DNA of 40,273 nt from an uncultured Ectothiorhodospiraceae bacterium (GTDB lineage: Bacteria > Pseudomonadota > Gammaproteobacteria > JAABTG01): NCBI GenBank assembly GCA_964461215.1, contig CAYWTP010000003.1, positions 1 through 40,273 on the forward strand, given 5' to 3'. Shown here one piece after another: positions 30,100 through 37,964 of this stretch (position 1 is its first letter; each line of letters opens with the position of its first letter). The translations under genes were made by a program, and so were the position numbers. A model generated the notes under the pieces. The model had not been told where the DNA came from, did no database searches, and saw only the letters and a list, made by a program, of their open reading frames with translations.

Positions 30100-31158
30100 A
30101 TGACTTCCGTATTGATCGTCGATGATCAATTCACCGGCCGCAAGATTCTGGAAGAGCTGGTGCACACCATTGATCGCGATCTGTCCGTCGAGAGCTTCGC
30201 CGACCCTTACGAGGCCCTCGAGCGTGCTACGGCGCACATTCCCGATCTCATTCTCACGGACTACAAGATGCCGATCATGGATGGTGTCGAGTTCACCAAG
30301 CGGGTTCGGGCCATTCCCGGATGTGCCGACGTTCCCGTGATCGTGGTTACCGTGGTGGAGGAACGGCGCATCCGTTACGAGGCCCTGGAGGCAGGTGCGA
30401 CCGATTTCCTGACCCGGCCCATTGACCATCATGAGTGCCGCGCCCGGTGCCGGAATCTGCTGACCCTGCGCCGGCAGCAGCAGATCATCAAGGATCGGGC
30501 CCGCTGGCTGGAGCAGCAGGTTGCCGTCGCCACGAAGAAGGTCCTGACCCGCGAGCAGGAAACGCTGCTGCGGCTGGCGAAGGCCGGCGAGTACCGGGAC
30601 GCCGGCACCGGCAACCACATCCTGCGTATGGCAAAGTACTCCAGGCTGCTGGCCGCGGAGCTGGGGCTTTCCGAGGCCGATTGCGATGAGATTGAGCTGG
30701 CCGCGCCGATGCACGACATCGGCAAGATTGGGATTCCCGACAACATTTTGCTGAAGCAGGGCAAGCTAACGCCGGACGAATTTCAGATCATGAAGACCCA
30801 CACGGTCAACGGCTACGAGATCCTCAAGGGCAGCCCGTCCCGTTACCTGCAGCAAGGGGCCATCATCGCCCTAAACCACCACGAAAGATATGACGGAACC
30901 GGTTACCCGCAAGGCCTTAAGGGGGAGGAGATCCCCTTGAGCGCGCGCATCGTGGCGGTGGCCGATGTCTACGACGCCCTCATGAGCCGACGCCCCTACA
31001 AGGCGGCCTGGACTTGGGAAGACGGCGTCGCATATATCAAGGAACAGTCGGGCCGCCACTTCTCCCCCATGTGCGTGGATGCCTTCATGCGCCAGCTTGA
31101 CCGGATCCGTGAGGTCCAGCACAAACTGCGCGACGTTCCCTCGCCCGAGGAGGAATAG
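30100..31158 (+). CDS. rpfG: Two-component response regulator with an HD-GYP c-di-GMP phosphodiesterase output domain (RpfG-type)
   Basis: The start is set to the ATG at 30100 (MTSVLIVDDQ). The REC domain has DD and the acceptor Asp in LILTDYKMPIMDG, but LTRP where the conserved Lys-Pro is expected. The HD-GYP domain has MHDIGKIGIPD and HHERYDGTGYPQGL. Confidence 0.88.
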   Translation: MTSVLIVDDQFTGRKILEELVHTIDRDLSVESFADPYEALERATAHIPDLILTDYKMPIMDGVEFTKRVRAIPGCADVPVIVVTVVEERRIRYEALEAGATDFLTRPIDHHECRARCRNLLTLRRQQQIIKDRARWLEQQVAVATKKVLTREQETLLRLAKAGEYRDAGTGNHILRMAKYSRLLAAELGLSEADCDEIELAAPMHDIGKIGIPDNILLKQGKLTPDEFQIMKTHTVNGYEILKGSPSRYLQQGAIIALNHHERYDGTGYPQGLKGEEIPLSARIVAVADVYDALMSRRPYKAAWTWEDGVAYIKEQSGRHFSPMCVDAFMRQLDRIREVQHKLRDVPSPEEE

Positions 31159-31218
31159 TCCACGGCAGACGCTGTGCTGGCGCCCACCGGAGCCCCCGGC
31201 CCTGGGTAGCTACGCTAA

Positions 31219-31247
31219 TTGACCGCCGTGCTACCAAATGGTAAAGA
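31219..31247 (+). promoter_or_regulatory. Candidate sigma70 promoter TTGACC-N14-TGgTAAAGA in the rpfG / RpfC-paralog gap
   Basis: TTGACC is at 31219-31224, followed by a 17-nt spacer ending in TGg (extended -10), then TAAAGA at 31242-31247. It is bracketed by GGTAGC motifs at 31205-31210 (forward), 31230-31235 (reverse) and 31259-31264 (forward). Confidence 0.35.
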
Positions 31248-36879: not shown

Positions 36880-37043
36880 GGGTCGACCACAAGAGCACCA
36901 AGGTCGTGCCAGCGCGGTCCTTACCCATAGAAGGGCCCCTGCTTCATACTCCCGGTAACCCGTCCCGAGAGCGACCCAGCGCTTTCATCTCCGACGTCCA
37001 ATACAACTTTGCGGTCATGGGGCTGCCAAGGGCCGGGCAGCCC

Positions 37044-37964
37044 TCAGCCCTGGCTCCGTGCAGCGGCCGCAGGCGTCGCCGCGATTCTGCGGTTCTGGGC
37101 CTTCATCAGCCGCTCCATCATGCGCAGATCCTTCTCCGGCAGGCTCAGTGCGGAATCCACCCATAGCTCGGCGATGTATAGCAGCTCCTCATAGGTGATG
37201 GGGTTGACCCGCTCGCGCATGCGCAGCAGGGCCTTGCGCGTGACCTGGGTCTTCTCGTCCCTGCGCACGAAGGCGTAGAGTGCATCCCGGGCGCCGCCTT
37301 GCTCGGCGAGAATGTCAATGACACCCATCTCGTAGAGCTCTTCGGCGGAGTATATCTTTCCGCTCATGATCATCCGCTCCACCAGGTTGGGCGACAGTCG
37401 CCGAGCCAGGAAGCTGTATGCGCCCATTCCGGGAAACATGTTGAACACCACCTCGGGGAATCCGATCTGAACGTGGCGCTCGGCGATGATCACATCGCTG
37501 GACAGGGCGGCTTCCAAGGCCGCCCCCAGGGCGGTGCCCTCCAGCATCGCGACGGTGGTGATGGGCAGATCGAGATTTCTCAGATTCTGGTACAGCACCT
37601 TAATGCTCAGGTGCGCATAGTCGCTCAGGGTTCCCCGATCCTGGTCGCGGATGGTGTTCAGGAAGAAGCCGAGATCACCGCCCAGGTTGAACACGCCCGG
37701 CATGGCCGAAGCGTGGACCAGATACTTGATGGTCGTCTCCCCCGCGCGGCGCAGCTCACGGCTGACGGTATTGCGCACCGCCTCCTGGAATGACTCGATG
37801 TCACGCAGCAGGCTGGGCGTGAAGCTCGGTCGTGGGGTGGGCTGCATATAGTAGGTCAGAAGCTGGTACTCTGGATCGTATCCGGTGGTCAGTTCCCTGA
37901 AGCTTTGTGCCCACAAAGGATGAGCGGATTGCGCGTCCAGGAACGGCTTGAGTGCGGTGTTCAT
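37044..37964 (-). CDS. rpfF: DSF-family signal synthase RpfF (crotonase/enoyl-CoA hydratase superfamily)
   Basis: It is co-linear by eye with Xanthomonas RpfF: VFNLGGDLGFF..IR..DR..L.DYA, ALGAALEAALSSDVIIAE, GFPEVVFNMFPGMGAYSFLARR, YSAEELYEMG, ELWVD.AL.L.EKDLR.MERL..AQ.RR. The two catalytic Glu are present with the same 20-residue spacing (ALEAAL and FPEVVF). It is convergent with rpfC. Confidence 0.85.
   Translation of the reverse strand: MNTALKPFLDAQSAHPLWAQSFRELTTGYDPEYQLLTYYMQPTPRPSFTPSLLRDIESFQEAVRNTVSRELRRAGETTIKYLVHASAMPGVFNLGGDLGFFLNTIRDQDRGTLSDYAHLSIKVLYQNLRNLDLPITTVAMLEGTALGAALEAALSSDVIIAERHVQIGFPEVVFNMFPGMGAYSFLARRLSPNLVERMIMSGKIYSAEELYEMGVIDILAEQGGARDALYAFVRRDEKTQVTRKALLRMRERVNPITYEELLYIAELWVDSALSLPEKDLRMMERLMKAQNRRIAATPAAAARSQG

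Follow-up and report, generated by a model that had tools for sequence, protein, structure and literature searches.

The closest described counterpart of the locus considered here is the diffusible signal factor (DSF) module encoded by the rpf cluster of Xanthomonas campestris. According to passages of one account (PMC4504480), a small membrane protein resembling the input domain of RpfC, named RpfH, is encoded there between rpfG and rpfC, and the REC domain of RpfC binds RpfF independently of the phosphorelay. The same passages place rpfF-rpfG-rpfC clusters outside the xanthomonads in Methylophaga, Leptospirillum, Thiobacillus, and Methylobacillus, and excerpts of a second paper (PMC4136832) report an rpf cluster in the sulfur oxidizer Thiolapillus brandeum. 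Metagenome surveys count rpf genes routinely, and DSF loci outside Xanthomonas are already recognized and automatically annotated as "DSF synthase" and "RpfC"; the presence of such a locus is in itself ordinary. The locus described in the following lies on contig CAYWTP010000003.1 (40,273 nt, the whole stretch of DNA that was analyzed and hereafter called the window) of an uncultured Ectothiorhodospiraceae bacterium (GCA_964461215.1), and the slot of rpfH is occupied in it by a second, apparently kinase-dead sensor.

Taken as a whole, the locus is quite probably a working DSF-family module, which an uncultured gammaproteobacterial clade from salt marsh and marine sediment has inherited vertically at its site and in which the gene in the rpfH slot is a relic of another sensor lineage (type B below) that acts as a modulator. 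The block contains four long open reading frames (ORFs) with a high G+C content at third codon positions (GC3). Their order, established from ORFs and Pfam domains, is the one that a first-pass annotation of this DNA had proposed, namely rpfG, an rpfC paralog, rpfC, and a convergent rpfF as in Xanthomonas, and the motifs quoted there (MHDIGK, HHERYDGTGYP, FLTRP, VFNLGGDL, and PEVVFNMFPGMGAYSF) were all found in the translations. The features of the locus are as follows.

29789..29917, plus strand: SDR remnant of 43 codons, the N-terminal part of a classical SDR gene (six-frame translation).
30004..31158, plus strand: rpfG-like response regulator with REC and HD-GYP domains (Pfam); alternative start ATG at 30100.
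31159..31572: spacer of 414 bp ahead of the relic sensor gene, with an AT-rich patch containing TAAAGATA at 31242-31249.
31573..34083, plus strand: predicted kinase-dead type-B RpfC relic (P0002), 836 residues, in which Pfam recognizes REC and HPt only.
34228..36879, plus strand: rpfC-like type-A hybrid kinase (P0003), 883 residues, with Pfam HisKA, HATPase_c, Response_reg, and Hpt; likely start ATG at 34306.
37044..37964, minus strand: rpfF-like DSF-family synthase of the crotonase fold, 306 residues, convergent with rpfC (Pfam ECH_1/ECH_2).

This structure is not an assembly artefact, as four independent runs from salt marsh and marine sediment contain near-identical DNA free of indels.

The product of the gene in the rpfH slot, P0002, consists of a relic multi-transmembrane input, a relic DHp-CA region, a pseudo-receiver, a canonical REC domain (Asp632), and an HPt-like domain. 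Its working type-B counterparts, P0125 and P0126, each represent the only sensor in one of two syntenic loci from related lineages (L084 and L085), where they directly follow rpfG. The H-box SHELRTP of working type-B sensors reads VRDALAP in P0002 (His to Asp), the N-box Asn of P0125 and P0126 is replaced by Gln, the G1 (DxGxG) and G2 (GGTGLG) motifs are lost, and the HPt motif HGLKGSAG has become QALKGTAG, which puts Gln772 in the place of the phospho-His. The receiver retains ADD, LDLDMPG, T, and KPV; its Asp is the only phosphorelay residue kept among those tested, and the best match of this domain among isolated REC chains in the PDB is the REC domain of X. campestris RpfC (83 bits vs. 53 bits for the next). 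Judged from these residues, the second sensor is a relic of a deeply diverged type-B lineage and would itself support neither autophosphorylation nor HPt transfer. Of the two RpfC-type membrane sensors listed in the first-pass annotation, P0003 stands as an RpfC of the working type, while the other has to be reassigned as a kinase-dead relic from a sensor lineage other than that of P0003.

Shorter versions of this relic, of 489-530 residues, are found in five lineages (L081, L082, P0189, P0190, and P0191/L086). They are devoid of the input and kinase halves and keep the pseudo-receiver, all receiver active-site residues, and the same Gln. The six relic proteins, including that of the window, are 40-66% identical to each other, and all are encoded by open frames with invariant ADD, LD..MPG, T, and KPV and the shared His-to-Gln replacement. 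Because frames, receiver residues, and Gln have been preserved despite this divergence, the relic is probably a retained protein with a non-kinase function, that is, a maintained modulator. The overlap of the relic stop with the rpfC start in L081 and L082 suggests that the two genes are co-translated there, and the window relic carries no indels across three independent environmental samples (11 variable sites). The window copy shows the least reduced form of the relic, an intermediate step of its reduction.

The most serious competitor of a maintained modulator, unlikely but to be kept in mind, is a pseudogene devoid of function and in the process of being lost, which would leave a plain RpfF/RpfC/RpfG triad. 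None of the catalytic motifs and neither phospho-His is left, and L002, another related lineage, is without the relic. The GC3 of the gene (0.74, z = -3.3) is the lowest in the window and climbs along it from 0.705 over 0.719 to 0.767, so that it is lowest in the relic half, whereas the neighboring rpfC has 0.79 throughout. This low GC3, together with the deletion of the N-terminal half (input and kinase) in the relatives, fits ongoing decay and counts against a maintained function. A pseudogene would, however, hardly be expected to keep an open frame in six lineages with invariant receiver residues and a common Gln, and the lack of indels in the population samples as well as the suggested co-translation with rpfC also speak for retention.

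The origin of the relic could also be sought in a local tandem duplication of rpfC followed by decay of one copy, which we consider improbable. The two genes are indeed adjacent and on the same strand, and their products are colinear (31% identity), including the pseudo-receiver. However, the C-terminal 407 residues of P0002 are 43-44% identical to P0125 and P0126 and 35% to P0003, and its HPt part is 49% identical to type B vs. 28% to P0003. By domain, the identity to type B amounts to 27% for the input, 30% for DHp-CA, 40% for the pseudo-receiver, 48% for REC, and 49% for HPt. In a tree of the region from pseudo-receiver to HPt, P0002 and the short proteins of L081 and L082 group together (97%) inside a type-B clade (99%), while P0003 falls in a separate type-A clade (97%); this and the other trees were built from quick searches and short, metagenome-derived samples. 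In addition, a type-B kinase is the sole sensor in the same slot in a sister lineage. A tandem-duplication origin was rejected on the basis of the identities and the sensor tree.

A relic from another sensor lineage agrees with the history of the synthase. The flanks of L081, L082, L084, and L085 are equally distant from those of the window (0.67-0.70), whereas the RpfF of the window shares 69% and 64% identity with that of L081 and L082 and 49% and 48% with that of L084 and L085, whose RpfF proteins lie outside the clade that holds the window RpfF (98% support). RpfF type, as read from these comparisons, follows sensor type: A and B pairs alternate at one site and RpfG is constant. Since synthase and sensor change together over equidistant flanks, they appear to travel together, and by the same identities only this pair has a history conflicting with the flanks (RpfF 49% vs. 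flanks 70% to L084). The window locus no longer contains the type-B RpfF cognate to the relic. It is possible that an A pair displaced the B synthase in an ancestor of the window, or that both pairs once coexisted. The alternation points to a joint, cassette-like exchange of signal and receptor, by which the signal "dialect" would be altered.

More tentatively, the kinase-dead proteins with REC and Gln-HPt (836 residues here, 489-530 residues in at least five relatives) could represent a conserved new accessory component of DSF systems, born when one synthase-sensor pair displaced another and the orphaned sensor was re-used; we hold this to be a reasonable possibility that falls short of an even chance. 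Such a component, like the relic modulator of the main reading, might serve as a phosphate sink for the HPt domain of RpfC, as a pseudo-HPt inhibitor competing at the receivers of RpfG or RpfC, or as a receiver that binds and sequesters RpfF in parallel to the REC domain of X. campestris RpfC. If true, two jobs that Xanthomonas RpfC performs alone, phosphorelay and RpfF binding, would be split between two proteins.

Vertical inheritance of the locus at its site rests on the comparison with six related metagenomic lineages (L002, L081, L082, L084, L085, and L086), all of which carry it at the same position in a shared order of epimerase, (pdxH), yjbQ, SDR, rpfG, sensor(s), convergent rpfF, LonN, flavoprotein, and Mur ligase. 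RpfG and the flanks diverge together (around 63-70% identity), and RpfG is 72-79% identical to its counterparts in L081, L082, L084, and L085. A concatenate of six flank proteins and RpfG (1,502 columns) yields the topology (L002,((L084,L085),(window,(L081,L082)))) with support of 92-100 and pairwise identities of 0.62-0.78, and the tree of type-A RpfF mirrors it: L002 branches outside, and the window is placed beside L081 and L082. The edges of the locus are less uniform. L086 has no yjbQ between the epimerase and SDR genes; in L002, no flavoprotein match was seen between LonN and the Mur ligase, and an alpha/beta-hydrolase gene (14988-15743, minus strand), which the other relatives do not have, lies between SDR and rpfG. 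Genes have thus come and gone on a small scale at either edge.

The first-pass annotation had suggested a different history, in which the truncated SDR gene at the left edge points to acquisition or rearrangement of the 8-kb block. The truncation itself is real. The remnant reads VRLDTERRDRPILISGCSSGIGRCVA... and then a stop, keeps the dinucleotide-binding motif ILISGCSSGIG, has a GTG start that overlaps the yjbQ stop, and is identical in the contigs of run X1. A full SDR gene of 279-288 residues follows yjbQ in L002, L081, L082, L084, and L085 and lies between epimerase and rpfG in L086, and the remnant corresponds to its first 30 or so residues. Because SDR is intact in all six relatives that carry the locus, the remnant is, on this alignment, a local deletion of about 0.75 kb and not an insertion scar. 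That the whole block is nevertheless a recently acquired island appears very improbable to us. Besides the truncated gene, it could be invoked for the slightly lower GC of the block (0.641 vs. 0.669 in the left and 0.650 in the right flank) and for the RpfF and sensor types of sister lineages, which disagree with the flanks. An island is at odds, however, with the shared site and gene order, with an RpfG as conserved as the flanks, with the type-A RpfF tree, and with relatives that have both an intact SDR and the locus. Composition, which had been proposed as a check, does not set the block apart, as the GC3 z-scores of the three working genes (rpfG, rpfC, and rpfF; -1.1 to -1.8) are within the range of the window. 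The island was rejected given this unremarkable composition and the lack of an integrase domain among the flank ORFs scanned, of a tRNA or any other Rfam family (also in the spacer 31159..31572), and of flanking repeats; with the relatives carrying the block at the same chromosomal site, the proposal that the whole block was acquired horizontally falls by the criterion that the first-pass annotation itself had set.

The assignment of the synthase is based on its relationship to characterized enzymes. A phmmer search against all PDB chains gave 177 bits for X. campestris RpfF (3M6M), 172 bits for 7ZQ7, 169 bits for Burkholderia Bcam0581 (5FUS), and 167 bits for 6DGN, and the next-best crotonase follows at 52 bits, leaving a gap of about 120 bits. 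Glu151 and Glu171, the predicted catalytic residues (E141 and E161 in X. campestris), are 20 residues apart, as the first-pass annotation had stated, and invariant in 18 homologs, and the RpfF-typical FPGMGAYS and W268 are retained. A strong Shine-Dalgarno sequence, GGAGGAGGA, precedes the ATG. The nearest relative in protein databases is 69% identical, and many relatives are labeled "DSF synthase" by JGI; the nearest named relatives are the RpfF proteins of Thiolapillus and Sedimenticola, with 54-58% identity.

A scan of species-representative genomes returned 584 RpfF relatives, of which the best 80 loci were analyzed. These best 80 belong to Sedimenticola, Ca. Thiodiazotropha, Thiolapillus, Ectothiorhodospiraceae, many other Gammaproteobacteria, and one monophyletic alphaproteobacterial group. 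In the RpfF tree, rooted on one crotonase (AUH, 1HZD), the window protein and both RpfF types fall among RpfF-like proteins. X. campestris RpfF and Bcam0581 form long branches amid environmental proteins, and the window RpfF sits with L081, L082, L001, and L002 beside Sedimenticolaceae. On the evidence of scores and tree, the crotonase groups with characterized DSF synthases in a large environmental clade, and the clustering with housekeeping crotonases that would have spoken against the first-pass assignment is not observed (about 170 bits to RpfF vs. at most 52 bits to others). Three loci (L019, L051, and L072), whose contigs had been assigned to Thermoplasmata, Halobacteria, and Bacteroidota bins, nest in gammaproteobacterial clades with short branches; they are most likely mis-binned contigs rather than cases of cross-domain transfer.

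That the crotonase is an ordinary enzyme of fatty-acid beta-oxidation, with the kinase and the HD-GYP protein sensing something unrelated, is barely credible, since the generic Pfam result (only ECH_1 and ECH_2) and the name that NCBI would give ("crotonase/enoyl-CoA hydratase family protein", NF006452, passed with 339.6 bits at a cut-off of 177) have to be set against the gap that separates the RpfF structures from all other crotonases, the sensor adjacency kept in 69 of the 80 loci across two proteobacterial classes, and the lack of other beta-oxidation genes nearby among the Pfam-scanned ORFs.

The working sensor of the locus, P0003, has five strongly predicted transmembrane (TM) segments (hydropathy) after a short N-terminal segment bearing S-E-W-E-Q. 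Its phosphorelay set is complete, with DHp His233, a HATPase_c domain (102 bits), REC Asp663, and HPt His813, and the domain order is DHp, CA, pseudo-receiver (approximately 462-592), REC, and HPt. As with the relic, the best isolated REC-domain chain in the PDB is the X. campestris RpfC REC (96 bits vs. 71 bits for the next). Sensor homologs adjoin rpfF in the 69 loci mentioned above, all from other species, and are convergent with it in 50 of those; a full REC-HD-GYP gene is within reach in 26 loci. Just before TM1, the RpfF-linked sensors share the motif E-x-x-Q-x-x-x-R, in which all 45 proteins have the Glu and the Arg and 44 of them have the Gln. The additional module of about 125 residues between CA and REC, noted in both sensors by the first-pass annotation as receiver-like, was confirmed as such: a profile of P0003 462-592 and its homologs matched a true-receiver profile in hhalign with 97.1% probability (E 6e-11). 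It is a pseudo-receiver because the acidic pair is lacking and, being present in essentially all recovered RpfF-linked sensors, a trait of the family and not a peculiarity of this genome.

Two loci depart from the usual sensor gene structure. In L041 (Ca. Thiodiazotropha endolucinida; 4934-9627), the match to the sensor adjacent to RpfF is split into two parts with 8 nt between them, suggestive of a frameshift or an error of sequencing, and a second sensor-like gene lies 2 kb off on the opposite strand. In L047 (6464-9626), the sensor match is broken by about 640 nt.

The third component, RpfG, is recognized by Pfam as Response_reg (83 bits) and HD_5 (131 bits), and its HD-GYP half matches the active HD-GYP enzyme PmGH (4MCW) with 227 bits. 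The motifs H237-D238 and HHERYDGTGYP are intact. With the metal-ligand numbering that we take to hold for PmGH, which agrees with the His and Asp positions found (offset +16), seven of the eight ligands are kept and the equivalent of E185 is Gly201. Because this Glu185, presumably a ligand of the third iron, is Gly here, the metal center of RpfG may be binuclear. In the receiver, the acceptor is Asp86 and Arg138 (FLTRP) stands in place of the beta5 Lys, in line with the first-pass annotation. Arg is present at this position in all five aligned syntenic relatives and in 16 of 28 REC-HD-GYP neighbors of RpfF-like genes, the remaining 12 having Lys; by this distribution, the Lys-to-Arg change is real, conservative, and inherited clade-wide. 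The longer start, at 30004, is matched by an aligned Met in four of five relatives. In alphaproteobacterial loci (L036, L037, L039, L053, L056, L057, L060, L062, L064, L066, L068, L073-L076, and L078), the slot of RpfG is filled by a receiver in which beta5 carries Ser (DFL.SPVDH) and which is joined to a non-HD-GYP output.

By homology, the components would operate as follows. RpfF would convert 3-hydroxyacyl-acyl carrier protein into a free cis-2-enoic fatty acid, which the type-A RpfC would detect with its membrane domain and the short segment at its N-terminus. RpfC would then autophosphorylate at His233 and relay the phosphate via Asp663 and His813 to Asp86 of RpfG, and phosphorylated RpfG would switch on its HD-GYP phosphodiesterase for cyclic di-GMP (c-di-GMP).

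Several findings weigh against a working DSF module and have to be considered together. RpfF fails the NCBIfam equivalog of RpfF (NF053515), with 220.6 bits at a cut-off of 550. Because of this score it is not, as a sequence, a Xanthomonas-type ortholog in NCBI's sense, and the first-pass label of a "Xanthomonas-type DSF locus" holds for the DSF-type RpfF, RpfC, and RpfG and for the gene order, and not for a strict Xanthomonas type. The oxyanion loop reads L146-G147-A148-A149, with Ala148 where X. campestris (Gly138) and Burkholderia have Gly; the residue in question works through its backbone NH only, and Ala occupies position 148 in all 18 aligned members of the environmental clade. The Arg at beta5 could alter the activation of RpfG. 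The DSF-binding segment of X. campestris RpfC beside TM1 needs R15, D17, S18, E19, and Q22 (PMC5391125), and the E-x-x-Q spacing of the linked sensors matches E19 and Q22. At these five positions, in a comparison that rests on the paper-reported residues and a PDB fragment, P0003 has Q, A, S, E, Q (three of five kept), the relic P0002 has R, R, A, E, Q (three of five), and the type-B kinase P0125 has R, D, S, E, Q (all five). Because P0003 keeps only three of the residues essential for DSF sensing, its ligand may differ from DSF. Finally, none of the RNA runs searched for the gene holds it.

The surroundings of the locus are those of a housekeeping region. Pfam assigns a GDSL lipase, DUF1499, an aminopeptidase, the epimerase, pdxH, and yjbQ to the left flank, and the LonN-domain protein, the flavoprotein, and the Mur-type ligase to the right flank. 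The non-xanthomonad background described in the first-pass annotation is confirmed by the class III PhaEC and the PKD/multihaem protein farther left in the window (Pfam), and the relatives are rich in sulfur oxidizers. Two diverged 900-residue Pat-like proteins (CoA-ligase-like, ATP-grasp, and GNAT) at 5571-8273 and 15384-18086 bracket the class III polyhydroxyalkanoate genes, and an HDAC-family deacetylase gene lies beside the former. As also noted before, rpfB is not adjacent: no gene for an AMP-binding acyl-CoA ligase was found among the Pfam-scanned ORFs of the window, five ORFs at about 18.1-25.7 kb being outside the scan, and none was called in the neighborhoods of the relatives either.

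A promoter and terminator scan gave nothing beyond shuffled expectation. The 8-mer TAAAGATA occurs at 31242-31249 (plus strand) and inverted at 34172-34179 (minus strand), in both spacers ahead of sensor genes, and has three copies in the window vs. 0.06 expected. The loci of the relatives lack this 8-mer, which was therefore set aside as a shared operator; it may act as an operator or promoter element peculiar to this lineage, or be there by chance.

Compared with X. campestris, the locus shares the arrangement of rpfG, an extra sensor-related gene, and rpfC convergent with rpfF. Also common to both are the Glu pair of RpfF, a hybrid kinase with a short N-terminus, multi-TM input, REC, and HPt, and an output of REC and HD-GYP, and the REC domain of X. 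campestris RpfC is the best isolated match for the REC domains of both window sensors. The differences are as follows. The window RpfF is about 45% identical and scores under the RpfF equivalog cut-off, the type-A sensor keeps three of the five DSF-sensing residues, RpfG has Arg at beta5, and there is no adjacent rpfB. The sensors of the window have an added pseudo-receiver and depart from the canonical RpfC order DHp-CA-REC-HPt; the His-to-Asp spacing is 430 residues in P0003 and about 314 in X. campestris RpfC. The slot of RpfH is taken here by an 836-residue dead kinase with relic kinase, REC, and HPt-like domains, which the available description of RpfH sets apart: RpfH, as described there, is an input domain only, while the relatives of the window instead keep the C-terminal half.

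The rpf clusters reported outside the xanthomonads share the same triad and often have chemolithotrophic hosts, and the passages of PMC4504480 and PMC4136832 that describe them make no mention of a second, kinase-dead sensor or of alternating sensor-synthase types. To judge from the literature that was searched, neither A and B pairs that alternate at one site nor a conserved relic of this kinase-dead kind has been described before, a novelty that is modest.

Further afield, the order DHp-CA-Rec1-Rec2 is shared with ShkA of Caulobacter (6QRJ), to which residues 227-731 of P0003 align with 220 bits. In ShkA itself, which unlike P0003 has no membrane input or HPt, c-di-GMP binds the pseudo-receiver Rec1. 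In P0003, the positions of the ShkA ligand residues R324, Y338, I340, R344, S347, and Q351 carry A, I, H, P, Q, and A, respectively, and the linker has ADR in place of the DDR motif; with none of the six ligand residues conserved and the linker changed, a ShkA-like gating of the pseudo-receiver by c-di-GMP was rejected.

For the relic, the nearest analogies are pseudo-relay modulators such as Arabidopsis AHP6, an HPt protein with Asn for His, and Pseudomonas RetS, which acts on GacS. Like these, the relic appears to have lost phospho-His or kinase activity and has yet been retained, and by analogy with AHP6 and RetS, which can interfere with a cognate relay, it might do the same. It differs from them in deriving from a displaced DSF sensor and in keeping a canonical receiver. 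A displaced sensor kept as a His-less, kinase-dead receiver protein would offer a natural test case for the origin of pseudo-kinases and pseudo-HPt proteins and for the modulation of phosphorelays.

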